DNA from: Trypanosoma brucei
Taxonomy: Eukaryota
Assembly: GCA_000002445.1 (NCBI GenBank)
Contig: CH464491.1
Coordinates: forward strand, 4,480,001-4,544,000
Length of the DNA: 64,000 nucleotides
Reading direction: 5' to 3'
The notes below the pieces were generated by a model, which saw only the letters and a program-made list of their open reading frames with translations, did no database searches and was not told the origin of the DNA. Below, piece after piece: positions 9,920-61,700 of the stretch. Numbering within the stretch: the stretch's first letter is position 1; each line of letters opens with the position of its first letter. A program made the translations under genes and the position numbers.

Positions 9920-10019
9920 NNNNNNNNNNNNNNNNNNNNNNNNNNNNNNNNNNNNNNNNNNNNNNNNNNNNNNNNNNNNNNNNNNNNNNNNNNNNNNNNN
10001 NNNNNNNNNNNNNNNNNNN
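9920..10019. other. Assembly gap (100 N).
   Basis: Run of n characters. Confidence 1.
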
Positions 10020-25458: not shown

Positions 25459-25465
25459 TGGATCC

Positions 25466-26533: not shown

Positions 26534-26671
26534 CAAGGAGATGGTAGAGCCCCAGCAGCGCCAGCCTCTCAGGATACACGGAAGCTGCCGTTTCAATGTG
26601 ACCTGTGCGAGGCGAGCTTCGGTACACGTTCTTCCCTGTCACTACACAAGAAATTCAAACATAAGAGCATA

Positions 26672-28335: not shown

Positions 28336-28830
28336 CTACCATTCACCACTTCCCTTTAGTAACTCTCCAAATGCATATTCAAACCTTTTAAATGCCCAAA
28401 CTCTTGCGATTATATTTCCACTACTAAGATAAGGTTTTCCACTTGGAGTTGATTTCAGTAAATGAGGTAACTCTTTATTCTCTTCTTTCCTGTCAGCCAC
28501 ATTAAAAAACCAAAAACATCTCTGCACATGCTCCTTGTGAACATCTTCTTCACTAAACTTATCTTCATTTTCCGCCGTATTTTCTATAAAATATTCCACC
28601 GAGTTCTCATATTTATTTCCATCACGAGCGCTACCTATAACGTCATACCCATCAACTTATATTACAATATCCTCATAACTTGCATTCTGTCTTTCCAAAA
28701 ACTCCATAACCCATCTAGGTCTTTTAACATGGCTATATAAACCTCCCATCGCAATTGTAATAATTTCAACATGGCTTAGTTTTGCACTCAATATTAGTCT
28801 GCACCATCCTTGAGTTGCATGAGTTTACAC
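28336..28830 (-). pseudogene. Glycosyltransferase-like (possibly ESAG3-related) pseudogene, copy 1.
   Basis: Fragments ...GGLYSHVKRPRWVMEFLERQNASYEDIVI*VDGYDVIGSARDG... and MEYFIENTAENEDKFSEEDVHKEHVQRCFWFFNVADRKEENKELPHLLKSTPSGKPYLSSGNIIARVWAFKRFEYAFGELLKGSGEW. It contains a DxD-like hLDrSDViv/vDkCDVii motif. The assignment to ESAG3 (nucleotide-diphospho-sugar transferase fold) is from memory and uncertain. There are internal stops. Confidence 0.4.
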
Positions 28831-29904
28831 TAAAAATACAAACACTCTGGGTTTCTTAGTGTAATTCACTGACACTTTGTTTATGTTATTTATTTTCTCA
28901 CTTTCAAAAGATACTGTACTTAAATACACAATGTAATAACAGCGGTAGTAGTAAATTTCTCAATATACAAAACTTTATTGCCTAATATACCTTTATAATT
29001 TTATTCTGTTATTAGAAAAAATGTAGAAAACTCAAGAAAGATAAGCCAGATGTACTACTAAGCTGTTTAGTTAAGAAATAGTTTTATATACATAGGTATC
29101 GACTTGATATTGTTATGATGTATCTGCTGCTACATGTTTGCTTAGTGTGTGCAGCTTCTCTTTGAGCGTGCATCTACAGTCTTTTGTTTTAGAAGTCAGT
29201 TTTAGCAACAGCTGGTGCAGAGCACGCTAGAGTAATTCTACTTCTTTATTGCATTCTTTACATTTCACCTCTACACATAGTTATGTTGATGGAAGTAGCT
29301 GATTGCACTGATTAGTTCAGATATACTAGAAATTTTACCAGTTGCGTGTGCTAGCTATTCCAATTACACGGTTTCCATCATAAGACTCCCATCAGCGTAG
29401 CGTTTAAAGCTGCTGCTACTGCAATCATCTCTGAAAAGAATGTATCCATTATCAGTATAATACCGCAAATTTGTGGGTTATCCTCTTTATCATCAAGTAT
29501 CATTTTGTTTTTCGCCGTGCACTCGCATATATTTTTACTTCACTCCGTACTTTCTTTAATTTCTTTTCGTCTTCTGTTTCTTTTCCTATCGGTAATGATA
29601 ACGTAGCAACTCCATTTAGACTCTACACTGGACTGTTTCGCGCCTTCGTTTCCTCTTTAGTTAGCTCGATGTGTGTATAATACAAATTTTCATAGTTGCA
29701 GAAAAAGCTACACATATTACAGCTACATTTTTTTCTTCCTTCCCTTGACTTTCCTTCATCAATATTTTTCCTTCCCCTCGTCGTTCTATCTCATATTCAT
29801 TTACTCCCATTGCATCATTTTTCATATAGTACCCTTAGAATTAGTTTAAGTGCTTCTATTTCTGGTCTCCAGATGGTCCATACAACTTCTCTTATTATAA
29901 TATT

Positions 29905-29933
29905 TGTATATAAACACACTCATAACACTCTCC

Positions 29934-30015
<82 letters not shown>

Positions 30016-30819
30016 TAATTATTTTTATTAATTAATTATTATTATTAATTATTATTATTATTATTATTATTATATTATTATTATTATTATTATTATTTAT
30101 TANNNNNNNNNNNNNNNNNNNNNNNNNNNNNNNNNNNNNNNNNNNNNNNNNNNNNNNNNNNNNNNNNNNNNNNNNNNNNNNNNNNNNNNNNNNNNNNNNN
30201 NNAGGTATTATTATTATAATTAGTATAAGTATTATTAATATTATTATTATTAGTATTAGTATTAGTATTAGTATTAATAATATTATTAGTATTAGTATTA
30301 TTATTAGTATTAGTATTAGTATTATTAATAGTATTATTATTAATTATTATTAGTATTAGTAGTAGTATTATATTTATTATTATTATTAGTATTAGTATTA
30401 GTATTAGTATTATTATTAGTATTAGTATATTTATTATTATTAGTATTAGTATTATTATTATTAGTATTAGTATTAGTATTAGTATTAGTATTATTATTAT
30501 TATTAGTATTAGTATTATTATTATTATTAGTATTAGTATTATTATTAGTATTAGTATTAGTATTATTACTAGTATTATTATTATTATTATTAGTATTAGT
30601 ATTAGTATTAGTATTAGTATTATTATTATTATTAGTATTAGTATTATTATTAGTATTAGTATTAGTATTATTACTAGTATTATTATTATTATTATTAGTA
30701 TTAGTATTAGTATTAGTATTATTATTATTATTATTATTACTATTAGTATTATTATTATTATTAGTATTAGTATTAGTATTAGTATTAGTATTAGTATTAG
30801 TATTATTATTATTAGTATT

Positions 30820-30862
<43 letters not shown>

Positions 30863-31235
30863 GTATTAGTATTAGTATTATTACTAGTATTATTATTATT
30901 ATTATTAGTATTAGTATTAGTATTAGTATTATTATTATTATTATTATTAGTATTAGTATTAGTATTAGTATTAGTATTAGTATTAGTATTAGTATTATTA
31001 TTATTATTAGTATTAGTATTATTATTATTATTAGTATTAGTATTATTATTAGTATTAGTATTAGTATTATTACTAGTATTATTATTATTATTATTAGTAT
31101 TAGTATTAGTATTAGTATTAGTATTAGTATTAGTATTAGTATTAGTATTAGTATTAGTATTAGTATTAGTATTATTATTATTATTAGTATTAGTATTATT
31201 ATTATTATTAGTATTAGTATTAGTATTACAAGATA
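29905..31235 (-). repeat. 70-bp-repeat region: core (ggagagtgttatgagtgtgtttatata on the minus strand) plus a massively expanded (TAA)n / (ATTAGT)n array. Contains the 30103-30202 N gap.
   Basis: Long (tta)n then (attagt)n/(att)n mixtures seen directly. The conserved VSG-upstream 70-bp core motif is at 29905-29935. The predicted 385-aa poly-I/L ORF here is an artefact of the repeat. Confidence 0.8.
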
Positions 31236-33192: not shown

Positions 33193-34083
33193 TTACATAC
33201 CACTTTCTTTAAACATCCAACCACAAATTTTACCAAATTCAAAATCCCATTTCTTTCCATCTGTTGCTGAAGCTTGTGTTTTCCCATAATATCTTGTACG
33301 GAACTTCCTTGTATCCAGCATTTTGTACCAAATAGGATTTTTTCCAATCAACTTTGCTTTCTCTTTCCATGCAATTGGTAGACCTTGAAAATGAATGAAT
33401 AGAGCATCTCCAACTTCTACACCATGCGGAATACAAATGAATCTCTCTTTATAATCCAATTATCCCATTAATCAACAAAACATTTTCACCCACAACTTCT
33501 TCCTGAATTGCTCTCCAAATTAATAAGGGTTTATAAATACTTTGCTCTCACCACCATTCATCCCTTTGAATAACTCTTCAAAGGCAAATTCAAATTTCTC
33601 AAAAATCCATACCATTGCTATTAAACCTCCACCAGTAAGATAGGGTTTTACACTTGGAGGTGATTTCAGTAAATGAGGTAACTTCTTGTTCTCTTCTTTC
33701 CTGTGCGCAACATTAAAAAAACAATAATTTCTTTGTACATGCTCTTTGTAATCTGAGTGCAAAATAAAGTCCAACTGAGGTACATAGCAGTCGGATGTTG
33801 CCATGAATAGAATTGTGGAAATCTTTTCTCTTTTAATATATCTTCTTAACTAAACTTATCTTCCATCCCTGCAGTATTTTGTATAAAATACTTTACTGCA
33901 TTCCCATACATTCTCCTGATCATAAACAATGACATCAGATCTATCCAAATGAATTACAATATCCTCATCACTCGCATTCTGCTTCTCTAAAAATTCCATA
34001 ACCCATCTAGGCCTTTTAACATGGCTATATAAACCTCCTATCGAAGTTTTAATAATTTCAACATTGCTTAGTTTCGCACTCAA
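33193..34083 (-). pseudogene. Glycosyltransferase-like (ESAG3-like?) pseudogene, copy 2: the longest copy, in three frames.
   Basis: MSAKLSNVEIIKTSIGGLYSHVKRPRWVMEFLEKQNASDEDIVIHLDRSDVIVYDQE..., then ...YKEHVQRNYCFFNVAHRKEENKKLPHLLKSPPSVKPYLTGGGLIAMVWIFEKFEFAFEELFKG..., then ...ICIPHGVEVGDALFIHFQGLPIAWKEKAKLIGKNPIWYK... These are homologous to copies 1 and 3. Confidence 0.4.
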
Positions 34084-35094
34084 TATTTTTCTATATAATC
34101 CTTGAGTTATTGTCGTTGGAACTACAACTACAATAATTCTGGATTTTTATTGTCATCATCGGTTATGTTTGTCTTTGTTATATCCTCTTGAAGTGATATA
34201 GCACTTCGACACACTAAATGTAATATAACCAATAAATCTTTCAAGATACATAACTTTATGTCATAAAATACTTTAATGAATGAAAGGAATGTGTAAAACA
34301 TTTTTTGAATGTATATAAACTTGTACACTAAGTTTTTTAGTTGAAGAAACAGTGTTAACAAATATAAACAATATCTTTATATAGTTTAGATATGGGTTTT
34401 GAAAGAAATGCGCGTCGTGTCTAAAACTTATGTTTGAGCACACACTTGCGGTCCCTGTCTTAGAAGTTTGCTTCTGTCACGGCTAGCACCTCACACTATG
34501 ATTCTTTTGCTTTCACTTGCATTTATCGCATTTTTTAATTATGCATTTTTATGGTTATTACAGCAGGTAGGTGCACTATTAGTGGATACATACTGAGAAT
34601 TTTACTAATTTATACTGATAAATATTCTAAACATCGGATTTCATAAGGCCCTGATCGGAGTAGCTGTAATAACTACCGCACTGTTTTTGCTAGCATCATC
34701 TCCACCGCCGCGTCTCTCTATTATATAGTGAATCGTGGAGCACAACATTCTCCTGTATTATTTCTTTCTTTTTTACCTTCTGTCGCTGTTTTTATGGATA
34801 AATTGGAGTCACCAATTTGTCCTGCAATCCCTCTTTCCTTATTGTCCCCTCCATCTTATCTCTGTGTATGATGATTCCCATAGTAATGTTTATGTTTAAA
34901 ACTGAACATCTTTCACATTTTCACTTTCTCCTATTAATTATGTCTTTGTGCGTATCTTTTAATAACACTCTCAGTATTCCCATTCACTCTTTTACTCCAA
35001 CAATACCCTTGCCATTGTTTTAAATTCTTCTCTTTTGTTCAAGCTACATGGTCTTTACAGAACCTCCAATCTTCTTATATTAATAGTATGCACA

Positions 35095-35160
35095 AACTCA
35101 TAACACACTCCTACCACTATCATAATCATCATTATTATTACTGTTATAACCCTAAATCAC
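35095..35160 (-). repeat. 70-bp-repeat unit (single, minus orientation).
   Basis: cacaaactcataacacactcctaccactatcataatcatcattattattactgt is the reverse complement of (TAA/TGA)n + GGAGTGTGTTATGAGTTTGTG. Confidence 0.7.
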
Positions 35161-42400: not shown

Positions 42401-43931
42401 TTACAAGATAACTGGAGTCAAAGCATTTAATTTTTTTTGCTTTTTCATCCTCTTTATCTTTCCCACACTCCATACACAATGCTTTTTGGCATCCTTGTTT
42501 ACTGCCTCACATTCCGGTTGTGTGGTAATTTTTTCTGCAGTCAGATTTCCCATCTTTCCAGCCTGTTTCTTTATTTGCTTACTCTGCTGCTTTTTGTTTG
42601 TCTTTTTCACTTAGCATGCACCTTTTTTTTCATCATTTTATTCCTTATCCCATATGCAAGGTTTTCACATTTTTTTCCTTTGTTAAGCTTTTTTCATTAT
42701 ACTTTGGCTTCTGAGCTCTGATCACTTGAATCGGTGGACCCTGAATCCCTTCTGTTGTCGGATTCTGCGCTGCTTGGACTGTTAGGGCCGCACGTGGAAC
42801 AGGGTGCGCTCGCTTCTTCAGCGCCTTCATGCTTGCTTCAAGCGCATTGTGCCTTGCGATGGACTACTCTTGCTGATACAGTTCGCTAGGTCTCCTAGAT
42901 CGTCCAGCCCATGGATCTTGTCTGCGTAGTTGCTGGCCGCATGTACCGTATCTGGTGAATTTTCCACATGCGCCACTGCTATTTTGACCATCACGGTCGC
43001 TGCCGTGGATCACGCCATAGTAGCCATGGCTGTTTATGACCTTAATAGCGTTACGTATGTTGTGTGCTAGCTGACTCACCGCTGCCGAGGTTGCTTGGAA
43101 TACCTTGCGGTGAAGACAGTGGCCAAAAACTTCGCCAAACTCCCGTTTCCAGTCCGGGGCTGAAGCGTCTGTCCAGGCGTTGGTCATAGTCTGCTTTCGG
43201 AAGCAAGGTGTGGCTAGGTTGGCTCTGCTGTCCTTGACACATATACAGAACATTACCGCGGCTGCGCTCGTGGCCTTTTGGCCCTCACAGTCTGTGGTTC
43301 GCGAGTTGGTTGCACCATTTAACGCTTTGGTTTCATCAAAGGTGTTATCAGTGGCTTTGGCTCCGTAAAATTTTTGAATTAAGATCGCTTTCACGCTTTG
43401 TTTATTCTGTGTGTTTGCTGTTTCCTGATCAGCTGTTATCTGAGCTCGCAGCTCCACCGCTTCGGCCAGTGCTGTGGTTACGAGTAGCCAAGCCTGGTCA
43501 GCTTGCTCTGCGGTTAGTTTTCCTTGCCTCACGCCTTTTAATTCTGGTATAATGTTGTCTGTAGAGGTAAGCCGTTTGTGTGCCGAAATCCATGCTGTCC
43601 AGTGTGTCTTCCAGCTGTCGTCTATTTCCCCTGGAGTTAGTGAATAGTTTTTGGCCACTTCTGCCCAGTCAGATGTTTCTTTTCCCAGGGCTAGTTTTGT
43701 GAACCATGAAGGTGGTGCGAAGGTTAGATTGAGGTCCTGCAAAGATGCCAAGCTATCGTCCTCGTCGACCGCCCGTTTCGGCAACTCGATGTCCGCATTG
43801 GCTGCTGCGCCTATAGCACACAAATGGTTGAAATAGATATGGTTCTCCGTTGGATCAACGTTTCCAGCGGCGTGCTTTGTTGCTAAAACAGCAATGAACG
43901 TCGCTGCTGCTATCTTATTGAGCGAAATCAT
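42401..43931 (-). pseudogene. VSG: VSG pseudogene: B-type N-terminal domain as a 355-aa ORF, CTD in other frames.
   Basis: MISLNKIAAATFIAVLATKHAAG...AAVMFCICVKDSRANLATPCF.... The C-terminal fragments 42645-42830 and 42401-42610 are in different frames. Confidence 0.8.
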
Positions 43932-44634: not shown

Positions 44635-44700
44635 TGCAATAATAACCAACACTCATAACACACTTCTCTCATTATCATTATTATCACTATAACAACCTTA
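44635..44700 (-). repeat. 70-bp-repeat unit.
   Basis: aataaccaacactcataacacacttctctcattatcattattatcac. Confidence 0.65.
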
Positions 44701-44992
44701 AATAATATCCTTGAAGTCAAAAAAATAAACCAAATCAGAATAGCGCAAATTTTTCACATTATATTACTCTATACCTTTACACTTATAGTGCACTCTTACA
44801 TCAAATTTTCACTTTTAATCGAAAAGTTTTGATTTTATCAAATTTTATCAAACATTCTCAGATTTATCTAATTATCTGAAAAAACAAAATTACATAATTT
44901 TCAAAAAAAGTGAGCAAAATCCTTAAAATAATAAAGCTCTACAGAACTAATATAAGAAAAAATCAGAGAAATTTTTCTTATTGACAAGAATA

Positions 44993-45304
44993 CTACCGTT
45001 TCGGATTTTTTTCTGTAACATCTTCACCATGTTTACCCTTTCCAAATGCACAATTTTGTTTGTCATCTGCTTTGTCATTTTCCCAACTCGTTTTATCACC
45101 ATGTTGCTTACAGTTAGAGTACGTTGCCCCCTCTAGTTGCTCTTCTGCTCCTGCTGCTGCATTTTCTGCTCCTAGTTTATGTTTGCATTCCCCTTTTCCA
45201 TCTTTTTCTTCCAATTTGCAACCTTTGTTTGTGCAGGTCGTGTTTGTTTTGTGGTCATTGCAGCCTGGTCTATGAAGCTCTGTCGCACCTTCCTGTGCGG
45301 TCAT
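44993..45304 (-). pseudogene. VSG: Orphan VSG C-terminal-domain fragment with no N-terminal domain upstream.
   Basis: ...CTNKGCKLEEKDGKGECKHKLGAENAAAGAEE...CKQHGDKTSWENDKADDKQNCAFGKGKHGEDVTEKNPKR is the cysteine/lysine-rich VSG CTD type. The sequence upstream on this strand is telomere-hexamer-like and A-rich, not a VSG N-terminal domain. Confidence 0.6.
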
Positions 45305-45584
45305 TGAAGAGAAGCACCTCGCAAAGCGCAGAGCTGAAATTCACAAAAGAAAAATTATGGTGCTGTGTAACGATGCGTGAGTAAAAACGAATATGAGAAA
45401 AATTCAAGTGAAGATGGCCGGCCGCTAAATAAGGATAAGGATGGGCACCAAAAAACGTTGTATTGCTAAACAAATTAAAAATATATTGTAAATAAACAAT
45501 AAAAAAGAAATTAAATAAAAAGAAATCCAAAAATTTTAAATAGTTAAAAAAACTAAGCACCACTGCAGAACTGTGGTCAAATAA

Positions 45585-45917
45585 GGGTTAGGGCGAGCAC
45601 CAAAAATGTTCTGCTGTATTACATAAAAAAATTAAAGTCGCGACGTTTCCCGACTGGTAAAAAAAAAACTTATTAGTAATGGGAGAAATAACCCTAACCC
45701 TAACACGCTCTAGAATTAGTTTCTTTTTTATATTTGACCGCAACTTCTGCTCTCTGCAGAGACAATCTCAAAAACCGAAAAAAAACGAAGGTAAGGAATT
45801 TTTTAAAATGCGCGAGATTTTATAAAATTCGCCAAAAGACACAAAAAAATAGAAAATCGATTAAAATATTGAAAAATCCTAACCCTTAAGCCTTTTTTTC
45901 TAAAAACCCAACCCTAA
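45585..45917. repeat. Degenerate interstitial telomere-repeat relic. TTAGGG orientation is at 45585-45593; CCCTAA orientation is at 45690-45704, 45878-45888 and 45907-45917. It lies within an A-rich low-complexity tract.
   Basis: gggttaggg; aaccctaaccctaac; cctaaccctta; cccaaccctaa read directly. Confidence 0.7.
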
Positions 45918-46076
45918 AAGTTCAAAAAAATCAACAAAAAAGGAGAAAAATTTTAGCTGCCGGAAAAAACTTACAGAGTCACAATTTTACAAAACCACAC
46001 TATTCCAGAGAACTTAAAGGTGTAAAAATATATCAGAGTAGCAAGAAATTTTTTAAAAAGAGGGAATAAAAATCTT

Positions 46077-47850
46077 TTAAAACAGAAAAACCACAAAGGC
46101 AGCAGCCATGAGAGCGAATTTATTATTTACAAGACAACAGGAATCCTTGCAAGTATTATTTTCCCATTTGCAGCCATCTTTCTCTCCTGTTTCTTGTTTT
46201 GCTTCTTTTCCTGCTTCCTTTTTTGCATTCTCGCCCAATGTGCATTTTCGGCTATTCCTTCCATCCTCTTTAAATATGCACCCCTTACCCTCAAGGTTTT
46301 TGCATTTATTTTGGTCATCTCCTGCTGCACTGCATTCTTTTTCGGCTTCTTGTTGTTTTAGTTTACTTGTGTCCCCCGTTTTTTTCGGTGACTTTGCTGT
46401 ACCGTCCGCGACTGCCGCTGACAGTGCTGTTAGGTGAAGATTCGATTCCAATGTTTCTTTGAATGTTTCTATTCTGGCTTCGGCAGCTACTGTAGCTTGT
46501 GCTTCTTTTTCGTATTTCTCAGCTGCTCCTGCTGCATTTTGGAGCTCTGCTAACCACGTCGGGAATGCTATTGTATTCGCGCCGCTTGTTAATGTTGCGC
46601 AGTCGCCTTTTCCTCCTGTGGCGTCGCCGTCGCAGTTACCTGCACCGGCGTTCGAGTCCGGGTGCCCTATATATCCGATTGTGCCATCGTTTCCTTTGGG
46701 TTCGTATATCAAGCTGTTTAGCTTGTTCGTCAGGTGTCTGAGTTCCTGCGCTGTCGCTGTTTGATGTGGTGCCGCTTCGCTTTTGCAGTTCTTTGCTATG
46801 ACGTCCCAGGCTGTGATAGCTGTGTTTTCGTTCCAGTCTGCTTGCGCGGTTGTTGCGGTCTTGTAGCATGCGGTGTTAGCGTTGTCGGATTTGCTTCCTG
46901 ACGCACACAGACAAGCTATAGTAATGCCGATCGAAAGTTTGGCTGAAGTCCCGCCCGTCGCTTTTGTTCCGCAGTGCGCCTGGCTGTCGCTTCCTGTGCC
47001 TAGTAGTTTCGGTTCTGGGTCTGTCCCTTCACCGCCTTACACTGCCTTTTTTAGGGCTGTAGCTATTTTCTGTTTTTTTGGCTGCAATGCTGCCCGCATC
47101 GAGTAGCTTCGCCTTTGTTGCTAGCAACTTGTTTAGAGTTGTGTTTAAGTTCCGGCTTAGCTGCGTTGGGTCTGTGGCTGCTCTTTTGAGTGCCGTTTGG
47201 CCTGCAGACGGCAAGCTCTTGAGGTAAGTGGATGCCGCTATACATTCTGCGCGACCGCTTCCACGGCACTTTTCCGTTATGTCGGTGTCCGGTGGTTGTT
47301 TCGACTGTTGTTCGGGTGGTGTTACGGCAAGTTTTTTTATTGCCAAGTAGTCACTTAGAATCAAAGATATGTGAGCAGCGGTTTCGGCTGCATTCTTTGC
47401 GTTTTTTTCATGCCTGTGGTAGGTCTTTAATGTTTTCTGAAGAGACAACTGCGGTGCACAATATGCCAAAGTTTTTCCTGTTTAGACCTTTTGCTGGGCC
47501 GGTTGCGGAGGCCGGTCTGAGCGACGACTGCAAGAGCGCTGCCATCGATATGGCTAAAGCAACCGCCGATTTGGCTATATCTCCTGGTTTCATTTTGTCG
47601 TTTCCCGTTGATGTCGTGGATATCCTATTGCTGCGGGTTGCGTGCTGTTGTTGTGCTTCTTGGTAGTGGCTCCCCTTTGATTCTTGAAGGTTGTGAAGTT
47701 TTTGTAATGCCACTTTCAGGTTCTTGTTTGTCGGCTTGCAGATTACCTTTTCTGGCCTTGTGCCCAGTTGCGGCCCCGCTGCCGTCTTTTGTTATCCTTA
47801 GCTTTCCTTCTCCAAGAGGTGTCAGTGGCAAACTCTGTGTATCCGAATCC
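46077..47850 (-). pseudogene. VSG: VSG pseudogene: complete CTD with GPI signal, N-terminal domain frameshifted.
   Basis: 46077-46712 ends ...GCKWENNTCKDSCCLVNNKFALMAAAFVVFLF*, a canonical CTD plus GPI-anchor signal. N-terminal fragments are at 46636-46869, 47029-47469 and 47408-47713 in other frames. Confidence 0.8.
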
Positions 47851-48216
47851 TATACTGCTAGTTCCTTTTTATGGAGTAAAGAAAAACTTATTCAGGCATA
47901 TACAATATGAGATTTTATTCACATTTTCTTAGGTGAGTTTTTTAAAATATAGTATTTATGAACATCCTGACACCATTTTTAATAAAAATGTGTTTTCGAC
48001 TTCACATAGCATAACAAATGATATTTAAGGTAAATAATTTTGTATCAACGGAGACAAGTGACTCACACATTAGGAAATGTAAATTATCACTATAAATAAT
48101 TTTGTTTTTCATATTTTCACCTTGAGTAAAGGTTTATGTTGGCATAAAAACCTACGGCCACCATGACCTAAATTTTTTTACAGAAAGATGTTACATACTT
48201 ATTCCAATCTATAGAA

Positions 48217-48257
<41 letters not shown>

Positions 48258-48399
48258 GCATCCACATACCTCCTCAGATTTGATTCTGTAATTATTACAA
48301 AAATATCACACATATCTTGTGCTTGAAAAATCATGTTGTATGGCTTCTAATCTGCTATATCTGTTGCTGAATACTTTCCTGTATACTCCTTGTTAGTAA

Positions 48400-49150
48400 C
48401 AACGTAAAGTCTTTGTTTGGCCAGTATACGAGGTGCTGTTCCTGATTCCTTCAAAAAATTGTATTCTGTTTTGTTTCTTTCGCTCACGATTTTTCAATTT
48501 GTAGTTTTCTGGAACTTCCTCTGTGCCCTGCTCTGGTGGTTAAGTAGAGTGCTCGTCGCAGATAGTAAAAGGGTCGATCCCCGTGGGCGGAAAGTGTTTA
48601 GCCTACGCTAAGGATGGATATGCCTCAACGTGGCGCTAGGGTTCAGGAACAGAAAAGAAATAAACTGGGAAGTCAAATGTTCCATCCAAACGGCGGCCGC
48701 AACACCGGATATGGAGCGACCGCTCCGTGGGGAGAGAACCATTACTTAGTGTTCCACCACGGTTCAGCACCCTGCTCAAGTGGGGGAACCAAAATCCCTG
48801 ACTTAACCTCCGTCCGGAGAGGAAGATGGATATGGTAAACATGGTTCAGACGCAAAGGAGGAGAGTATGGAATCGAACGGGCACCAAATGGAGAACGCTA
48901 CCCTAAACACGCGCACATGCAGTCGCCCACCGGTGGGTATCAATTCTATGAAAAACAGCGGGTTTTAGTGGGTAGGAACGCCGGTACAGCGTTGAGGCCC
49001 ACACTACCATGCCCTCGTGGTGTGGTGTGCGTAAATGCATTTCCTCCTACCCTCGTGTGGACTGACTGCATGGTCCCGACAGTTGCTCGAGAGAAAATCA
49101 AAAAAAATGTCTTATGTTTTTGCTACACTTGGAGAACTGCATACCCGTAA
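48400..49150. other. Compositionally distinct, GC-normal island with a tRNA-like motif (gggtcgatccccgtgggcgg at ~48560-48580). Identity unknown.
   Basis: The sequence is unlike the flanking AT-rich VSG-array spacers. It has a T-arm-like GGTCGATCCCC, but I could not fold a convincing cloverleaf. Confidence 0.25.
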
Positions 49151-49545
49151 AGCTGACACTCAAGTATTACAACTCCTTTGTTTCTAAAAATTAACTTCTA
49201 CACAAGCATTACCACAAAACACTACATAATAAAAATTCCATTTCCAGCTACCAAACGCTTATGTTTTAAGTTCCCCCAAATTGTTACCGTAAATTGTTTT
49301 CTTTCCAAGTATTCATACCAACTAATATTTTTAACAATCAATTTAACTTTATCTTCTCAAGAAATAGTCTGTCCTGGTAAATGAATAAACGAAGCCTTTA
49401 CAGTCACCCAACTATTGGGAATAGTAAAAAATATCTCCTCATAATTTAATCCAATCATTCCTCTCCTCAAAACAAATCTCTATCCAACAGCTTCTTCCAA
49501 CACAGCACTACATATTAGCAACGGTTTGTAAATACTCTGCTCTGA

Positions 49546-50050
49546 CTACCATTCACCACTTCCCTTTAGTAACTCTCCAAATGCATATTCAAACCTTTTA
49601 AATGCCCAAACTCTTGCGATTATATTTCCACCACTAAGATAAGGTTTTCCACTTGGAGTTGATTTCAGTAAATGAGGTAACTCTTTATTCTCTTCTTTCC
49701 TGTCAGCCACATTAAAAAACCAAAAACATCTCTGCACATGCTCCTTATGTTCTGAGTTCATAAGCAAATCCAACTGAGAAACATAACACTCTGATGTTGT
49801 CATGAATATAATAGGGGAAATATGCTTCTCTTTTACTATATCTTCTTAACTAAACTTATCTTCCATCCCTGCAGTATTTTGAATAAAATACTTCACAGCA
49901 TTTCCATATTTTTCACGGTTGGATATTATAACATCACACTTATCAACAGTTATTACAATATCCTCATAACTTGCATTCTGTCTTTCCAAAAACTCCATAA
50001 CCCATCTAGGTCTTTTAACATGGCTATATAAACCTCCCATCGCAATTGTA
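49546..50050 (-). pseudogene. Glycosyltransferase-like (ESAG3-like?) pseudogene, copy 3.
   Basis: MGGLYSHVKRPRWVMEFLERQNASYEDIVITVDKCDVIISNREKYGNAVKYFIQNTAGMEDKFS plus MTTSECYVSQLDLLMNSEHKEHVQRCFWFFNVADRKEENKELPHLLKSTPSGKPYLSGGNIIARVWAFKRFEYAFGELLKGSGEW. The stretch 49322-49745 is identical to 28122-28545. Confidence 0.4.
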
Positions 50051-50284
50051 ATAATTTCAACATGGCTTAGTTTCGCAGTAAATATGAGCCTATACTATCC
50101 TTGAGTTGCATGAGTTTTAACTACAACAACGAACACTCTTGGTTTCTTAGTATAATTCACTGACACTTTGTTTATGTTTTTCATCATCTTGATGAGATGC
50201 AGCGCTTAAACCACACTAATAGTAAAACAACAGTATAAGTGTATAAATATCATATTTCCTATTCTAATCTACTTTAAAACATTG

Positions 50285-50330
50285 AGTCTGTTGTGAGTTT
50301 GTGTATACGAATATTATAGCAATAGTGTTT
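50285..50330 (+). repeat. 70-bp-repeat core (plus orientation) upstream of the VSG at 51190.
   Basis: ctgttgtgagtttgtgtatacgaatattatagcaatag. Confidence 0.65.
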
Positions 50331-51189
50331 GTGATGAAAACCGAATTGGGGAAAAGTAGAAGCATTAAAAATAATGGTAAGGGTGATATAAGAGTAAGTG
50401 ATGGAGGAAAAGAAAAGAAATGTGCTAAGGATATTATTAAAGCAAAAGCATAAAGATAAAGAGGGATGGAGTGAGATTGTATACAAGCAGTTTCGAACAG
50501 TAACTTAATGACAGTGGTTCTTAATACAAGGAGATGAAGGAAGGAATATTGAAAGGAAGACAAAGTTTGGTTTACAAGCCAAATTTTGTCACTAGGTGAT
50601 ACGCAACAACACAGCGCAGAAAAAGGAAAGTGATACATTAGAATGAATCACTGATTATTCCTCAAATTTCACGTTGAAATGAATATAAGCCACCGCATAT
50701 ATGATTTTATTCACTTAAAATGTTAATATTCTGGAGAAATAATGTTTAGCTTCACTGAGGTAAGTGTCTGACGATGAAGAAACGTTGATTTTCACTTGAA
50801 GATAACCAGTAATAGAGAAAATGTATGATACATAGGAACCCAAAAGGTCGGTTAGAATTTTGCAACCAGCTCGACCTCACAAAACAGCCTGCGGCAAGGA
50901 GCCAATCAATAATAGGTCGAATTTCACGAAGTGAGGGCAGAAGCAGCATGCGTAAACCTAGGTAATGGACCTAAAAAACAAAGAGTGCAACTGCAAAAAC
51001 TGAGCTGGTGCCAGAGAAGACAACAAACATCTAACAACTAACATAAGAAGAGGTGGCGCACTAGTCATGTCCACTCTGAATGTGTCAACCACTGCATACT
51101 TAGGCATAAGTCACCTTTTCTAAGCCAAACACAGCTCCTTGTTTACTTTCCAACTCCAGAAATAACACAGCAAGGAGCACTGGAAAAAT

Positions 51190-52560
51190 ATGACACTATC
51201 ATGGATACTACTAGCGACTGTAGTGGCGATGCTACCAATCTGGACTATAACAGTGGAGACGGCTGCAGGACAAGGTCTAAAAGACACCTCTTGTAGCCTC
51301 TCTGTCAACTACCCAAACAAAGACTTGGACACTATAAGCAAAAAAGCGACACTCAAACTGAAAACAGCTGTACTTGACACCGACGCCATGATAAAGCTGA
51401 AACTTCAAACGGAAATTTATCTAGCCAAGCTGCCCAACAAACAAGACACGCGCCCATGGGCCGCTCTTGAAGCGGCCCTTGAAAGGGAAATAGGAGGCGT
51501 CTTAACAGCACTTCCAGGTACAGCAAAAGCAGCAATCAAAGCAACACAGCGCGCAGCTCACCTGCAAGAACGCTTAGCCGAATTTCTGTCAATCTTCGCA
51601 AACGCAGCCAAATCCGGCGTGCCGCAACATTGCTGCCTCTCAACAGGTTCAAACCATCAAACAGCAGTTGAAGGTATCACAGGCCTAAAAGGCTGCGTCC
51701 ACAAACCTGGAAATAGCAGCGCCGTTCCGGAAGCGGTGACGACAATCACGGCAGCAACGTACAAAGACATACCGACTCAAACAGCTGACGGGAGAGATGC
51801 GATAGCTGCGGCGTCCAACCTAAACTGCAGCATAGCACTGGGGACAGAAGATGGATCTCTGGGAGCCGGCATACCTAAAAACGGAAACAACAGCAAGAGC
51901 CACGAGCCTTTCACTGCAGCTTATCTCAAGGTAGCCGCCAATGCAATAACAGCAGTTAACCCCAACAACAGCAGCAAGCTACGCTAAGCCAAGTGAATTC
52001 ATGGTAATTTAGGTAGCAGAACTCAAAAAGCAGTGAGTTTACTGCTTCAATCCAAAGCCGAACACGACGACCACACAGAAAAGTTGGTAAAAGACAAATA
52101 AAAAAGAGGAACGAAATTCGAAACAGATTTCTGGGGCAAGGTGCTAAACGAGCAGGTAACAAAGCAAACGGCAGACGGACAAAGCAACCGCATGCTAGGA
52201 CAGATGAACGACATCACTGAGCTGCAACTTACTCTAACGTATTATGAGAGCCTTAACGGCGCGGAACATAAAGATAATTAAGGAGCTGCAGGAAGAAAGC
52301 AAAGCAAATAAAGAAAGTTCAGCAACCACAAAGATTAGTGAAACAGATGAAACTTGCGCGACCAAAGGAGTAGATAATGTGAAAACCCCTGCAAGTTGGT
52401 TGACGAAGAAGGTGGAAAAAAGAAGTGCAAATTGGATAAAGAAGCGGCAAAACAAGCAGCCCAGGCAAGAGAGAAAGATAGTAAAACCGGACCCACAAAC
52501 ACCACAGGAAGCAATTCTTTTGTCATCAACAAGGCCCCTCTTTTGCTTGTATTTTTGATT
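51190..52560 (+). pseudogene. VSG: VSG pseudogene: N-terminal domain ORF of 265 aa ending in a premature stop, CTD in another frame.
   Basis: MTLSWILLATVVAMLPIWTITVETAAGQ... The CTD 52244-52558 has the canonical end NTTGSNSFVINKAPLLLVFLIL in a shifted frame. The 3'UTR 16-mer agatatattttaacac is at ~52641-52656. Confidence 0.85.
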
Positions 52561-52867
52561 CTAGCATAAAACTTTTAAAAATTATTGGTAAAGGATTTTT
52601 TGCTAAATTTTAATAAATATATTAAATTAGTTTTTTTTGAGGGAATTAGATATATTTTAACACTTTTTGATGAAAATGTGAAAATTAGTGAGAATTTTCG
52701 AAACTTGAAAATTATGAAAATTTTAGTAAAATGTGTATGACAGTGTCCCAGGTGTGTGAAGGTAAAGAAATATAAGGAATGAAGAATGAATACTATTCTC
52801 ATTGGATTATTTTGTTTATTTTTTGTGTTTTATGGATGTTTGTTAGGCTTTAATAACGATAACTACA

Positions 52868-52905
52868 AGATAGTATTGTGAGTGTGTATATACTAATATT
52901 ATGGG
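52868..52905 (+). repeat. 70-bp-repeat core.
   Basis: gtattgtgagtgtgtatatactaatattatgggaac. Confidence 0.65.
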
Positions 52906-54044
52906 AACTATGGTGCTGAAGACAGATGGACGGGCTAAGTGCAAGCATCTATATCAGTTACAGAGCGCAATGTAAGTAAGTAATTGAGTAACAAAGAATG
53001 GAGAAGAGAAAAGGATAAAAATGTTAGAAAAGAAAACAAAAAGTGTTAGAAGGATTTGATGCACTGTTTAGTAAAAGTCTATAGGACGATATCATCATAC
53101 GGGGAAATGGTTAAGAACAATGAGACAAGAAGTCTACTAACCGATATAAATAGAAATACTTCGGAATTCACAGCAGTAATAGGTACAAAAGCCGCTGTCG
53201 AAAGAATAGGTAAAAGAAGTAACTAAATGATAAGAAACCGCGGATGGACGCGCAAAGAAGAATTTTTTTAGTACAGAACGTTTCAAATGACAATCAACCT
53301 CTCTCTTACTGTCTCAATAAAAAACTGTTGAACCCATTTAGAAAGCGAGCAATTCATAAACGTATACACACTAACACGGTATTGATGGAACTTGTCAAAC
53401 ACATTCACAGTGAAAAATGTATTTGGGACCGCAAATGAGCAATGAGAGACGAAAGAGACAGACATTTACATGATAACAACAAAGATAAGTTGAAGCTGTG
53501 AGTATGGCAGAAACGCTGGCTTAATATTGTTATTGAATAAGTACACACACAACAGAAGTTAACCTCTAATAGAAGCACAAAGATACAATAATAAATATAA
53601 AATTTTTTGATGGAGATTAGACTTCTATAAATTATATCTTTAAGTAGATAATTCTTTTACTTGACTGAGTGATTTTTAAGCAACAATAGCTGACTGGAAA
53701 ACGGCACTCATACAAAACTTTTGTACGCCCCCTCAGACATGAAGAAATATTTATAGCCTTGTATTTTTTAGCAGTTTGTTACTTTCCACTTTCACTGGTA
53801 TTATAACGCGACACATCAAATGATTCATTTAAAAATAACACTCATTATTATTTTTGGCAGGAAAACCTAAGTAAAAAAGCAAACATTGGATAGAGAATTA
53901 AGGGATCTGTGTTTGATTTTCAAACTTATTACTAAGTCCGCTGCTTGGCCCAAAATGCATACCCAAACCGGCATACAGACTGCAAGGACATACTTTTATT
54001 TAAGAACCACATTTTAACGGTAAGGACCAAAGAAGCTCTTTCAT

Positions 54045-55610
54045 GGATGTAAGGAAAAGCAGGATCTTAACGCTCTTAGTAACGCTCTTAGTAACGCTGG
54101 CGCTTTTAAATGACGCCCTCAAAGCCTTAGAAAATGTAGCGGAAGACAGCAACCAGCCAGAACGACAGGCTTTGTGCTCTATAATAGAGCTCGGTGGCGA
54201 AAGATCAAAACTTCTAGACTAGGCACCAGGAGGAACTTCAGACTTGGATGAGTTGCTATCAATCAACATGAAGCTCGCGGAAGACACAAGGCTGCAACAC
54301 TTCAGGGACGCAACCGACCCGACTAAGCCACGAGACACAACCAAACAAGCGCTACCCCCGAATACGAATTGGAATGAACGCTGGCCGGACTGGCAAAAAG
54401 CCGCTAACCCTCTGTTGGAAAAAGGCGAAATCACGGAAAAACTTAAACACTTTACTAGACAAGTTAAATGATAAACAAAAACATGCCGTCCGACTCCACA
54501 TATTCAAACTAGCGGAAGAAGCGTCCAGGGAGGCCAAGCAAGCAGAACAAGAACATCCAGCAGGCGACTTCCTAACAGAAGACGACCTACACAAAGAGCT
54601 AAACAAAGCAATTTACGGTGAAGAAACAGAACCTGCTGACGATTTCAGCAATTGTAAAACGTTTGGCGACAGCCCTGCCAGTGACAGACAAGCGAACTGC
54701 GGCAGTGCCAGCGTAGCAGGCAAAACCAACACGGCATTCGCAGCATTCGTCTGCGTATGCGCCAAAGACAACACCAACGGTGGAAACGAGGGAAAAGCCT
54801 GTGCAGGTTCTGTAACTCTGAGCAGCACCTGGAATCCGGGCACCAACAATAACCCATCACCCGCAACGTTAGCAGAATTAAGAAAGCTATGCAATATAAA
54901 GGCTGAAACACAGCTAACAGTAGCAGATCTTCAAAGAAGGATCGCAGATGTAACTGGATTACTCCGCTACACAACCCAAGCAACGCACCTCGGCACTTTC
55001 CTGACTACAGCCTGCAGCGGCGCCGCAGCCAGAGGAGTGTGTGTCACATACAAGGGCATCCACGGCCACGCTGCGGACCCTAAGAAGGCAATAAACTGGC
55101 TAGCTGAACTAGATGCCACGGCGAAAAAAATACACAAACACGAACAGGCGGTCTAAGCTAGGAATAGGCTAGCTCAGCTACTAGCAGTAAAAAAGCAGCT
55201 TGCTACGGACGTAGACTACCTAACAAGAACAATAGAAACACCGCAGCGACGCCCCGGACTGCAACAGCAAGCGGAAGAACAAAAAAACAAAAACCAAGCA
55301 AGAGCACAATCAATCTGCGACGAACACAAAAAAAGTAAAACTAAATGCGAAAATACAGGTAAATGCAAATGAAAAGGAGAGGATGAGACCAAAGGGGAAT
55401 GCAAATCTAAAGAGGGGAAGGGCAGAAAAGCTAAGGAACAGAGGGAGCTGTGGGAACAGTCGCTAGAGTAAAATGCAAAGTAAAAGTGGAGAAAGATTGC
55501 AAATATCTGGATTTTCAACAGTAAGGAACAGAGTGAAAATATTCCAGTTTTCTCGTCAATAAAAAATTGGCTGTTATGGCTGCTACTTTTATGAGTTTAG
55601 TCGAATTCTA
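54045..55610 (+). pseudogene. VSG: VSG pseudogene: in-frame stop near the N-terminus, frameshifted CTD.
   Basis: The ATG at ~54045 runs into a tag stop at ~54218. ORF 54374-55156 is a B-type N-terminal domain (...AFAAFVCVCAKDNTNGG...). The GPI signal SFLVNKKLAVMAATFMSLVEF is in a shifted frame at ~55545-55610. It is ~75% identical at protein level to 59505-60917. Confidence 0.8.
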
Positions 55611-56780: not shown

Positions 56781-56880
56781 NNNNNNNNNNNNNNNNNNNN
56801 NNNNNNNNNNNNNNNNNNNNNNNNNNNNNNNNNNNNNNNNNNNNNNNNNNNNNNNNNNNNNNNNNNNNNNNNNNNNNNNN
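56781..56880. other. Assembly gap (100 N).
   Basis: n run. Confidence 1.
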
Positions 56881-58025
56881 TATCTAGCCAAGCTGCCCAA
56901 CAAACAAGACACGCGCCCATGGGCCGCTCTTGAAGCGGCCCTTGAAAGGGAAATAGGAGGCGTCTTAACAGCACTTCCAGGTACAGCAAAAGCAGCAATC
57001 AAAGCAACACAGCGCGCAGCTCACCTGCAAGAACGCTTAGCCGAATTTCTGTCAATCTTCGCAAACGCAGCCAAATCCGGCGTGCCGCAACATTGCTGCC
57101 TCTCAACAGGTTCAAACCATCAAACAGCAGTTGAAGGTATCACAGGCCTAAAAGGCTGCGTCCACAAACCTGGAAATAGCAGCGCCGTTCCGGAAGCGGT
57201 GACGACAATCACGGCAGCAACGTACAAAGACATACCGACTCAAACAGCTGACGGGAGAGATGCGATAGCTGCGGCGTCCAACCTAAACTGCAGCATAGCA
57301 CTGGGGACAGAAGATGGATCTCTGGGAGCCGGCATACCTAAAAACGGAAACAACAGCAAGAGCCACGAGCCTTTCACTGCAGCTTATCTCAAGGTAGCCG
57401 CCAATGCAATAACAGCAGTTAACCCCAACAACAGCATCAAGCTACGCTAAGCCAAGTGAATTCATGGTAATTTAGGTAGCAGAACTCAAAAAGCAGTGAG
57501 TTTACTGCTTCAATCCAAAGCCGAACACGACGACCACACAGAAAAGTTGGTAAAAGACAAATAAAAAAGAGGAACGAAATTCGAAACAGATTTCTGGGGC
57601 AAGGTGCTAAACGAGCAGGTAACAAAGCAAACGGCAGACGGACAAAGCAACCGCATGCTAGGACAGATGAACGACATCACTGAGCTGCAACTTACTCTAA
57701 CGTATTATGAGAGCCTTAACGGCGCGGAACATAAAGATAATTAAGGAGCTGCAGGAAGAAAGCAAAGCAAATAAAGAAAGTTCAGCAACCACAAAGATTA
57801 GTGAAACAGATGAAACTTGCGCGACCAAAGGAGTAGATAATGTGAAAACCCCTGCAAGTTGGTTGACGAAGAAGGTGGAAAAAAGAAGTGCAAATTGGAT
57901 AAAGAAGCGGCAAAACAAGCAGCCCAGGCAAGAGAGAAAGATAGTAAAACCGGACCCACAAACACCACAGGAAGCAATTCTTTTGTCATCAACAAGGCCC
58001 CTCTTTTGCTTGTATTTTTGATTCT
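56881..58025 (+). pseudogene. VSG: Partial VSG pseudogene copy: a duplicate of 51417-52560, starting inside the N-terminal domain at the gap.
   Basis: 56881 onward is identical to 51417 onward. ORFs 57082-57450 and 57707-58021 have the same proteins as the copy at 51-52 kb. The 16-mer is at ~58104-58119. Confidence 0.85.
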
Positions 58026-58334
58026 AGCATAAAACTTTTAAAAATTATTGGTAAAGGATTTTTTGCTAAATTTTAATAAATATATTAAATTAGTTTTTTT
58101 TGAGGGAATTAGATATATTTTAACACTTTTTGATGAAAATGTGAAAATTAGTGAGAATTTTCGAAACTTGAAAATTATGAAAATTTTAGTAAAATGTGTA
58201 TGACAGTGTCCCAGGTGTGTGAAGGTAAAGAAATATAAGGAATGAAGAATGAATACTATTCTCATTGGATTATTTTGTTTATTTTTTGTGTTTTATGGAT
58301 GTTTGTTAGGCTTTAATAACGATAACTACAAGAT

Positions 58335-58372
58335 AGTATTGTGAGTGTGTATATACTAATATTATGGGAACT
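58335..58372 (+). repeat. 70-bp-repeat core.
   Basis: gtattgtgagtgtgtatatactaatattatgggaac, a duplicate of 52868. Confidence 0.65.
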
Positions 58373-59504
58373 ATGGTGCTGAAGACAGATGGACGGGCTA
58401 AGTGCAAGCATCTATATCAGTTACAGAGCGCAATGTAAGTAAGTAATTGAGTAACAAAGAATGGAGAAGAGAAAAGGATAAAAAATGTTAGAAAAGAAAA
58501 CAAAAAGTGTTAGAAGGATTTGATGCACTGTTTAGTAAAAGTCTATAGGACGATATCATCATACGGGGAAATGGTTAAGAACAATGAGACAAGAAGTCTA
58601 CTAATCGATATAAATAGAAATACTTCGGAATTCACAGCAGTAATAGGTACAAAAGCCGCTGTCGAAAGAACAGGTAAAAGAAGTAACTAAATGATAAGAA
58701 ACCGCGGATGGACGCGCAAAGAAGAATTTTTTTAGTACAGAAAGATTCAAATGACAATCCGCCTCACTCTCACTAAATCAATAAAAAACTGTTGAACCCA
58801 TTTAAAGAGCGAGCAATTCACAGACGTATACACACTAATACGGTATTGATAGAGCGTATCAAACACTTCACAGCGAAAAGTGCATTTGGGACTGAAAATG
58901 AACAACGTGAGACGAAAGAGACAGATATTTACATGATAAGGACAAAAATAAGTTGAAGCTGTGAGTATGGTAGAAACGCTGGCTTAATATTGTTATTTAA
59001 TAAGTACACACACAACAGAAGTTAACCTCTAATATAAGCACAAAATACAATAATAAATATAAAAATTTTTGACAGAGATTAGACTTCTATAAATTATATC
59101 TTTAAGTAGATAATTCTTTTACTTGACTGAGTGATTTTTAAGCAACAATAACTGACTGGCAAACAGCACTCATACAAAACTTTTGTACGTCCACTCAGAC
59201 ATGAAAAAATATTTCTAGCTTTATTTTATTTAGAAGTTTGTTACTTTCCACTTTCACTGGTATTATAACGCGACACATCAAATGATTCATTTAAAAATAA
59301 CACTCGTTATTATTTTTGGCAGGAAAATCTAAGTAAAAAAGCAAAAATGGGACAGAGAATTAAGGGATCTGTGTTTTATTTACAAACTTATTACTAAGTC
59401 CGGTGCTTGGCCCAAAATGTATACCCAAACCGGCATACAGACTGCAAGGACATACTTTTATTTGAGAACCACATTTTAACGGTAAGGACCAAAGAAGCTC
59501 TTTC

Positions 59505-61080
59505 ATGGCGGCAGCCAAAGGAAGGATCTTAACTCTCTTAGCGACGCTGCCGCTTTTAAATGGAGCCCTTACAGCCTTAGCAGCTGTAGCGGAAGACAGC
59601 AACCAGCCAGAACGAAGGGCTTTGTGCGCTATAATAGAGCTCGGTGGCGAAAGATCAAAGCTTCTAGACCAGGCACCAGGAGGAACTTCAGACTTGGATG
59701 AGTTGCTATCGTTAAACATGACGCTCGCGGAAGACACATGGCTGCAACACTTCAGGGACGCAACAGACCCGACTAAGCCACGAGACACAACCAAACAAGC
59801 GCTACCCCCGAATACGAATTGGGATAAGCGCTGGGCAGACTGGAAGAAAGCCGCCGACCCTCTGTTGGACAAAGGAAAGATCACGGAAAAACTAAAACAC
59901 TTTAAGCTAGACAAGTTAAACGATGAACAAAAACATGCCGTCCGGCAGAACGTAGCTAAACTGGCGGAAGAACCCTACACGGAGGCGAAGCAAGAGGAGG
60001 AGGACCATCCGACAGCCGATATCCTAACAGAAGAAGACCTGCACAAAGAACTAAACACAGCAATTTACGGAACCCAAACGGAGCCTGCTGACACTTTCGA
60101 TAATTATAAAACGTTCGGCGACACCGCGGGCGCAACCAGGGAAGCAAACTGCGGAACTAACACGCAAGCGAGCAAGGCAGAAACGGCGTTCGCCGCATTC
60201 GTCTGCGTATGTGCCAAAGACAACACACACGCCGGCGACGAAGCAAAAGCCTGTGCAGCTTCTGTAGATCTGACCAACAACTGGGATCCGGGCACCAACA
60301 ATAACCCATTGCCAGCCACGTTAGCACAATTAAGGAAGCTGTGCAATATGAAGGCTGAAACGACGCTAACAGCATCAGAGCTGCAAAGAAGGATCGCGGA
60401 AATCACAGGATTACTCCGTCACACAACACAAGCAACGCACCTCGGAACTTTCCTAACTACAGACTGCAGCGGAGCCGCAGCCAACGGGATGTGTGTCACA
60501 TACAAGGGCATACACAACAACGCAGCAGACCCCAAGAAAGCAATAACCTGGATAGCTCAACTAGATGCCACGGCGAAAAAAATACACAAACACGAACAGG
60601 CGGTCCAAACTAGGAAGAGGCTAGCTCAGCAACTAGCAGTAAAAAAGAAGCTTGCTACGGACGTAGACCACCTAACAAGAACAATAGAAACGCCGCAGCG
60701 ACGGTCCGAACTGCAACAGCAAGCGGAAGAACAAAAAACCAAAAACCAAGCAATAGCACAATCAACCTGCGACCCACAAAGAAAAGTAAAAATAAATGCG
60801 AAAATACAGGTAAATGCAAATGGAAAGGTGAGGATGAGAGCAAACGAAAGTGCGAAGTTAAAGATGGTGGAGAGCAGAACAGCTAAGGAACAGATAGAGA
60901 TGCAGGAACAACTGTAAACTGTAGAAAGTATAAGGGCTAGGAGAGTTGCAAAAACGCGCCTGGAGAAAAAAGCCATGTAAAATGCCGTCTGTGGCTGGAT
61001 TGATTTCATTGAAAGACAAGGCAAAGTAAAACCGGCATGCATGGATTCCAGTTTTCTCTCCAATCAGAAATTGGCTCTGA
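59505..61080 (+). pseudogene. VSG: VSG with a complete B-type N-terminal domain in one 470-aa ORF. The CTD/GPI signal is reachable only by frameshift, so this is a near-intact pseudogene.
   Basis: MAAAKGRILTLLATLPLLNGALTALAAVAEDSNQPERRALCAIIELGG...AFAAFVCVCAKDNTHAGDEAKACAASVDL.... CKWKGEDESKRKCEVKDGG and the GPI-signal-like ...LALMAAAFVDSYYFCIL are in other frames. The 16-mer-like tgatatattttaatat is at ~61176. Confidence 0.8.
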
Positions 61081-61269
61081 TGGCCGCTGCTTTTGTAGAT
61101 TCGTATTATTTTTGCATTCTAAAATTTTAATTATTATTGCTCAAGTTTATGAAACTTGCTGAAATTTGATATATTTTAATATTTTTGTATATCCTTTAAA
61201 ATATTTGAGAATCTAAAATGGTTGTATGACTTTAGCCCATAGGTGGATATAACAATGGTTATAGAGCAT

Positions 61270-61700
<431 letters not shown>

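Follow-up and report, generated by a model that had tools for sequence, protein, structure and literature searches.

Does a set of telomere-type repeats lodged inside a variant surface glycoprotein (VSG) array mark a place where a chromosome once ended? The question is raised by a 64,000-nt stretch of Trypanosoma brucei DNA (contig CH464491.1 of assembly GCA_000002445.1, positions 4,480,001 to 4,544,000 of the forward strand; hereafter the window), in which short T2AG3-type tracts lie at 45.4-45.9 kb, between the 3' end of a VSG pseudogene, here called VSG-a, and an orphan fragment of a VSG C-terminal domain (CTD). A reading made from the letters alone (the sequence-only reading) had seen in these tracts a head-to-head relic of telomere fusion or telomere healing. 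The answer favoured here, with a probability of about 0.45, is that VSG-a keeps a flank of the telomere-proximal type, the locus being the old junction of such a cassette with a 5'-truncated array cassette.

Both strands were read, and every maximal exact match to (TTAGGG)n, whatever its phase, was listed across the whole 64 kb. Ten runs of at least 8 nt were found, as against about 12 roughly estimated for random sequence, and four of the ten are clustered inside 334 nt of the interval 45400-46000. The longest, GTTAGGGTTAGGGTTA, is a perfect 16-mer of 2.7 repeats on the minus strand (45704-45689, containing the plus-strand AACCCTAACCCTAAC); its G-strand runs in the VSG sense, and it lies 373-388 nt 3' of the VSG-a stop. 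Also on the minus strand are AGGGTTAGG (45886-45878, 9 nt) and TTAGGGTT (45917-45910, 8 nt). These positions fall within a degenerate T2AG3-like block (45917-45875, minus strand, 160-200 nt 3' of the VSG-a stop) that reads TTTTAGGGTTGGGTTTTTAG-A7-GGCTTAAGGGTTAGGA (TTTTAGGGTTGGGTTTTTAG...CTTAAGGGTTAGGA) and is composed of degenerate CCTAACCCTTA / CCCAACCCTAA units (family D4, copies 86% identical). The fourth run, AGGGTTAGGG (45584-45593, 10 nt), is on the plus strand, with its G-strand opposite to that of the tracts on the VSG-a side. The elements listed by the sequence-only reading were all recovered at or near the same places, the opposite-oriented motif being that at 45584-45593.

The null model consisted of 5000 dinucleotide-preserving shuffles of 45400-46000. 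The interval holds four exact hexamers against a shuffle mean of 0.42 (P=0.0004). Neither the four runs of at least 8 nt nor the longest run of 16 nt was reached in any of the 5000 shuffles, whose maxima were two runs and 11 nt; the opposite-strand 10-mer by itself has a P of ~0.0012. By arithmetic estimate a 16-nt perfect run is expected ~2e-4 times per 64 kb, and among 613 sliding windows of 601 nt only 18.6-19.1 kb approaches the telomere content of 45400-46000. Since the telomere-like hexamers exceed chance in the shuffles, the refuting outcome that the sequence-only reading had named did not occur, and its observation stands. With at least two tandem canonical hexamers at a non-terminal site (~18 kb and ~45 kb flanking), in an occurrence beyond compositional chance (0/5000 shuffles), the locus qualifies as a short interstitial telomeric sequence (ITS).

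VSG-a is a full-length VSG pseudogene on the minus strand (46077..47593), delimited by three-frame translation, its open reading frame (ORF) and a match to Pfam PF10659, with the ATG at 47593 and the stop at 46077. The N-terminal domain contains two frameshifts and one in-frame stop by three-frame translation. The CTD and the glycosylphosphatidylinositol (GPI) signal are intact, and the C-terminus reads ...CCLVNNKFALMAAAFVVFLF*. The canonical CTD and GPI signal that the sequence-only reading described at this 3' end are borne out (PF10659 E=2.6e-9, GPI signal in frame); the gene itself, which it began at 47850, starts at 47593 and is disrupted as described above. The best database relative is T. 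brucei VSG-1415 (77% identity), with which the signal peptide and the domain order agree. VSG genes occupy the minus strand from ~28 to 47.6 kb and the plus strand from ~50 kb; the strand flips between 47.6 and ~50 kb, so the minus-strand array opens with VSG-a, beside a divergent strand switch. Pattern search and BLAST detected no 70-bp repeat on the VSG-a strand within 2.7 kb upstream, the nearest core (50286-50303) being on the opposite strand.

The three G-type dimers at 45689-45704, 45875-45888 and 45904-45917 share one orientation, each leading 5'->3' away from the gene in the manner of a telomeric VSG, and the claim of a telomere G-strand tract directly 3' of the gene holds in this respect. 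VSG-a reads toward G-strand repeats as a telomere-adjacent cassette does, with the tracts 160-388 nt past its stop; no long terminal (TTAGGG)n follows, the longest run being 16 nt, and array DNA continues.

The flank departs from that of the array-type cassettes in the window. Two conserved VSG 3' untranslated region (UTR) elements, the 8-mer TTGCTACT and the 16-mer TGATATATTTTTACAC, are present on the minus strand (46020..46044; pattern search with one mismatch, and reading of the sequence), the 16-mer at 46035-46020. A recognisable 16-mer is present in six other cassettes. In five of these, a 70-bp repeat core follows 186-460 nt after it; in the sixth, an expanded triplet tract of ~1 kb and a scaffold gap come before the core. 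After VSG-a the next core is 1348 nt off, past the CTD fragment, and the array-type arrangement is absent. Aligned with the five normal flanks, that of VSG-a shares just the 16-mer and little beyond: the GGATATTA...(TAA)n...GTGTTGTGAGTGTG module is lacking, and the telomere-like block aligns as an insertion. The spacer from VSG-a to the CTD fragment measures 772 nt, where ~0.5 kb had been given by the sequence-only reading, and is 45% A on the plus strand. BLAST (word size 9) and nhmmer found no similarity between it and other inter-VSG spacers, the rest of the window or the T. equiperdum OVI contig CZPT02001161.1 (here L001, 7.6 kb). In minus-strand order, ~170 nt of unique T-rich DNA separate the degenerate block from the perfect tract.

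Telomere-phase sequence is also present within 70-bp repeats. The 5' part of the repeat at 35091-35160 (minus strand) reads GATTTAGGGTTATAAC and contains a 9-nt telomere-phase run in the VSG sense, TTAGGGTTA at 35147-35155; other 70-bp repeats of the window hold the degenerate versions TTTAAGGTTGTTAT and AATTAGAATTATTAC.

On the far side of the spacer lies the orphan CTD fragment (44947..45304, minus strand), which covers PF10659 model positions 1-82 and was delimited by three-frame translation and comparison with P0009 and P0006. Its ORF (45304->44993) matches PF10659 with E=7.5e-9, over the gathering score, and shows 59% identity with a CTD entry from T. brucei. The fragment begins a few residues ahead of the first CTD cysteine, near the hinge; upstream of it, three-frame translation revealed no N-terminal domain and nothing VSG-like in any frame. 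The GPI signal is frameshifted and truncated, with a stop after ...EKNPKR and a remnant ...NGSILVNKKNFSDFFLY* in another frame, and the 3'UTR is decayed, its 16-mer no longer recognisable by pattern search. Of the CTD-only fragment with its own 3'UTR described by the sequence-only reading, the CTD part is confirmed; the GPI signal is broken and the 3'UTR has lost its diagnostic 16-mer. The fragment's cassette is closed by a canonical 70-bp repeat (44640..44715, minus strand; sequence read, BLAST to 29916-29957 and 35096-35135, alignment), as in an array-type cassette. No direct support was found for the proposal that a telomeric gene conversion had its 3' limit at the fragment, whose own 3' boundary is of the normal array type. 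The next array gene, VSG-b, begins (43931) ~700 nt beyond this repeat, and its N-terminal domain ORF (42864..43931, minus strand) matches Pfam VSG_B with E=4e-44. VSG arrays and archives commonly include orphan CTD fragments.

The opposite-oriented motif has a structure of its own. The single reversed gggttaggg of the sequence-only reading is present as the plus-strand 10-mer, and belongs to one of two local copies of a ~58-nt direct repeat (family D3, copies 82% identical, 152-nt spacing), of which the telomere-like motifs form the cores. Copy 2 (45579..45636, plus strand) contains AGGGTTAGGG, which is CCCTAACCCT on the minus strand; copy 1 (45427..45484, plus strand) holds the degenerate dimer TAAGGATAAGGATGGG, or CCCATCCTTATCCTTA at ~45445-45430 on the minus strand. 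The 10-mer at 45584-45593 is not a direct healing junction, because ~280 nt separate it from the CTD fragment. Between the opposed tracts stands a non-telomeric spacer of 95 nt (45594..45688), recognised by reading of the sequence, with no telomere-like periodicity and no similarity elsewhere in the window. A palindrome or fold-back duplication across the junction was considered and set aside: by self-comparison the halves of the spacer are not palindromic, and just short A/T-rich inverted matches were found.

A telomere-proximal origin of the VSG-a flank is plausible because of the hexamer excess, the G-strand polarity, the absent downstream 70-bp repeat and the precedent of VSG221. In the VSG221 expression site studied by Glover et al. 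(2007), the only T2AG3-like tract was 106 bp long, with 46 bp of T1-2AG1-6 ahead of 10.5 degenerate T2AGRN repeats. A reporter had been placed on the telomere side of VSG221, with the tract between the two, and broken ends were healed at the tract, which seeded new telomeres (PMC1807955). The telomere-proximal reading is favoured because the VSG-a flank resembles a shorter version of VSG221-type sequence at the same relative position. One partner would have been a VSG that once neighboured a chromosome end, or a copy of such a VSG together with its telomere-proximal flank, and the other array DNA broken within a VSG. The two may have been joined by recombination or by microhomology-mediated repair, and both would have decayed after joining. 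The sequence shows the anatomy, the excess of telomere-type runs, their orientation and the atypical flank; from these the telomeric origin and the mode of joining are inferred. The locus is probably an ordinary scar of subtelomere shuffling and no new system. As it stands now, the site most likely has no activity. It could at best bind a TRF-type factor weakly, or serve as a latent seed at which a telomere is added de novo after a break distal to the tract.

Several observations weigh against this reading. Just 16 nt of perfect repeat remain. The two reverse motifs are non-random, and neither they nor the ~390 nt of unique DNA from the perfect tract to the CTD fragment are explained by the model. 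A second inverted motif pair, at 19.06-19.15 kb, sits in a non-VSG context, and because of this another process may generate inverted pairs. No orthologous locus was found by exact-product look-ups with eight ORFs or proteins, taken both from the surroundings of the locus and from other parts of the window; only a distant intact VSG (59505-60917) was matched, on L001. Homologue searches with VSG-a, VSG-b and the CTD fragment returned only VSGnome-type entries at no more than 77% identity, without a usable genomic contig, and a metagenome scan for the tract and its flanks gave 0 matches.

An unlikely alternative is that telomeric repeats were inserted, by telomerase or as captured DNA, in the repair of an internal double-strand break, and that no chromosome end was ever here. 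The same break would have removed the 70-bp repeat together with the 5' portion of the following VSG, and a deletion did happen, the 70-bp repeat and the N-terminal domain being missing. The perfect tract is short (2.7 repeats), and the DNA to either side of it is unique and non-repetitive. The telomerase of T. brucei uses T2AG3-like sequences as substrates (PMC1807955), and short ITSs at sites of double-strand break repair are documented in mammals (PMC2246262, PMC7215372). One clean insertion is not what the locus shows, however: several tracts are spread over ~490 nt, part of them degenerate, with both orientations represented; this process is not documented in trypanosomes, and the ~770 nt of extra unique DNA also need a source.

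Head-to-head fusion of two former chromosome ends, the VSG-a telomere and a critically short or healed telomere on the fragment side, is distinctly doubtful. The opposed polarity is real, the G-strands at 45704-45689 (minus) and 45584-45593 (plus) pointing toward each other as in a fusion-type ITS; the reverse 10-mer would rarely arise by chance, it has a second, degenerate copy, and the same '-> <-' polarity is seen at 19056-19147. The tracts of a fusion would abut or be linked by degenerate repeats, whereas here 95 nt of unrelated DNA intervene, the spacer's halves are not palindromic, and the reverse motif belongs to the local 58-nt duplication, ~280 nt short of the fragment. End sequence would also be expected on both sides: the VSG-a side fits, but the fragment and the array genes beyond it face away from the putative end, unlike telomeric VSGs. 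Further, T. brucei lacks non-homologous end joining (NHEJ), end-to-end fusions have not been reported in it, and whether microhomology-mediated end joining fuses ends is stated as unknown (PMC8287324). The fusion or healing proposed by the sequence-only reading therefore sits poorly with tracts of 16 and 10 nt, set 95 nt apart, one of them within a local duplication.

An assembly artefact, in which a contig bearing a telomere was chimerically joined to an array contig, is improbable. The scaffold does carry three exact 100-N gaps (9920-10019, 30103-30202 and 56781-56880), and VSG arrays are repeat-rich. The T. equiperdum OVI assembly also differs elsewhere in the window: 56881-61431 is 100% identical to L001 3027-7577, and the remainder of L001 matches other places in the window, so the arrangement differs between the two assemblies. 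T. equiperdum OVI and T. b. brucei TREU927 are very closely related (PMC5566637); L001 ends short of the telomere-motif locus. The locus itself, however, sits deep in the gap-free 26.5-kb block 30203-56780, both its flanks are unique, and the tract could not alone have nucleated a false join because 16 nt is shorter than the usual overlap or k-mer (e.g. Velvet k=33 for OVI, PMC5278650).

The second inverted pair invites a wider reading of the window. At 19056-19147 the plus strand reads GGTTAGGGTTAGGG, 58 nt of unrelated DNA and AACCCTAACaccAACCCTAA, with a further AACCCT ~20 nt on (to 19172). The pair is non-coding and has the G-then-C polarity on the plus strand that is seen at 45.4-45.9 kb; sequence comparison found no mutual similarity between the spacers of the two loci. 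It lies between a GRESAG4-type cyclase gene, an intact plus-strand ORF (11738-15499, 1253 aa, receptor-type, GRESAG4-like) ~3.5 kb to its left, and a partial rDNA unit with 5.8S rRNA at 20105-20273 and the first ~1400 nt of large-subunit (LSU) rRNA from 20869 to ~22500. No small-subunit rRNA was found upstream of this unit in the window, and the LSU match runs into an ingi-type retroelement with reverse transcriptase, endonuclease and RNase H ORFs (22324-27421). The loci 19056-19147 and 45427-45917 bracket a block of ~26.5 kb (19.1-45.6 kb) that consists of the partial rDNA, the ingi-type element and VSG array, and the G-strands at the two junctions are directed outward from all three pieces. 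It is very improbable that the bracketed block was once a small linear DNA with telomeric caps that became joined, end to end, between two other chromosome ends. The paired polarity could be coincidental, the chance of a matching polarity being ~1 in 4 given the first locus, and the block also holds a scaffold gap. If true, such a structure would imply ancient end-to-end joining in an organism without NHEJ and without documented telomere fusions.

Hardly any credence is left for chance, for low-complexity A/T-rich sequence or for a decayed 70-bp repeat: the window-wide count of 8-nt runs (10) is near the random estimate (~12), one 70-bp repeat does contain TTAGGGTTA, and the position of the first degenerate tract is about that expected for the start of a 70-bp repeat, but a chance origin is essentially refuted by the shuffles, in which neither the clustering nor the run length was ever reached, and by the rarity of a 16-nt run, and a decayed repeat as source of the first tract was rejected, the TAA-triplet block and the GTGTTGTGAGTGTG core being absent and the tract being an insertion relative to the five normal flanks.

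The wider setting agrees with that of a VSG archive. Subtelomeric Trypanozoon (T. brucei-group) DNA makes up the window: between 28 and 64 kb, ORFs match Pfam VSG_B, Trypan_glycop and Trypan_glycop_C in a profile search, and both the cores of 70-bp repeats and the 16-mers of VSG 3'UTRs recur at the spacing of cassettes (pattern search, one mismatch being allowed for the 16-mer), while 1-28 kb carries the GRESAG4-type adenylate cyclase, the partial rDNA unit and the ingi-type retroelement. Upstream of VSG-a are an (AT)n(AG)n microsatellite (~48215-48260) and a unique GC-rich block of ~0.7 kb (48420-49130) without a Pfam or Rfam match or similarity within the window. The block has the look of a RIME element, but no such identity is claimed, as no similarity to the window's ingi-type element was found. 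A telomerase RNA or other structured RNA was considered for the template-like CCCTAA run and dropped, Rfam giving no match in 44900-46200 or 47600-50300. A dispersed element of ~0.9 kb occurs three times on the plus strand (28119-28893, 33326-34229 and 49316-50231; 75-99% identity), one copy directly after the ingi-type element and another in the strand-switch region upstream of VSG-a. The adjacent plus-strand VSG cassettes 50046-55458 and 56881-61431 are apparently diverged duplicates (94.7% identity, via L001), with 3' flanks at 52648 and 58111 identical for ~260 nt. Two repeat expansions adjoin 70-bp repeat cores: (TAA)77 at 61409-61638, and a (GTATTA/TAT)n expansion of ~1 kb at 30205-31228, which also adjoins a scaffold gap and yields spurious weak local-alignment matches to (TTAGGG)n.

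If the VSG-a flank derives from a chromosome end, the locus would be a fossil of the traffic between telomeric and array VSGs that shapes the antigen archive. Such relics might be preferred sites for making an array gene telomeric, because broken chromosomes were healed at T2AG3 tracts in the VSG221 experiments (PMC1807955). A genome-wide tally of them would be a cheap gauge of how often chromosome ends are internalised and of whether ends are joined without NHEJ. One 16-nt relic beside a pseudogene is of modest significance alone.

A full-text literature search, whose coverage excluded the main VSG archive surveys, yielded no account of interstitial telomere repeats in T. brucei VSG arrays. 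The locus shares features with several known systems. In common with the orphan CTD fragments generally known from silent arrays, the fragment shows decay of its GPI signal and 3'UTR, after which comes a 70-bp repeat; unlike the usual ones, it adjoins on its 5' side a spacer with telomere motifs and not ordinary cassette DNA. The human 2q13 site is a fusion-type ITS with head-to-head (TTAGGG)n/(CCCTAA)n. Opposed G-strands face each other in the present locus too, but they amount to 16 and 10 nt around an unrelated spacer of 95 nt, and content resembling a chromosome end appears to be present on one side only. The short ITSs inserted at mammalian double-strand-break repair sites (Nergadze et al.; PMC2246262, PMC7215372) likewise consist of few perfect internal hexamers with unique flanks and are associated with rearrangement; the tracts here are multiple, partly degenerate, in both orientations and situated in a subtelomeric gene array. 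Compared by its published description, the VSG221 site shares with VSG-a the order of a VSG followed by degenerate sense-strand units of the T(1-2)AG(1-6)/T2AGRN type, in the orientation that seeds telomeres. VSG-a differs from it in the size of its tracts (~40 nt degenerate and 16 nt perfect, against 106 nt), in the lack of a 70-bp repeat on its strand in the 2.7 kb upstream, and in that its tracts lead into array DNA and not into a terminal (TTAGGG)n array.

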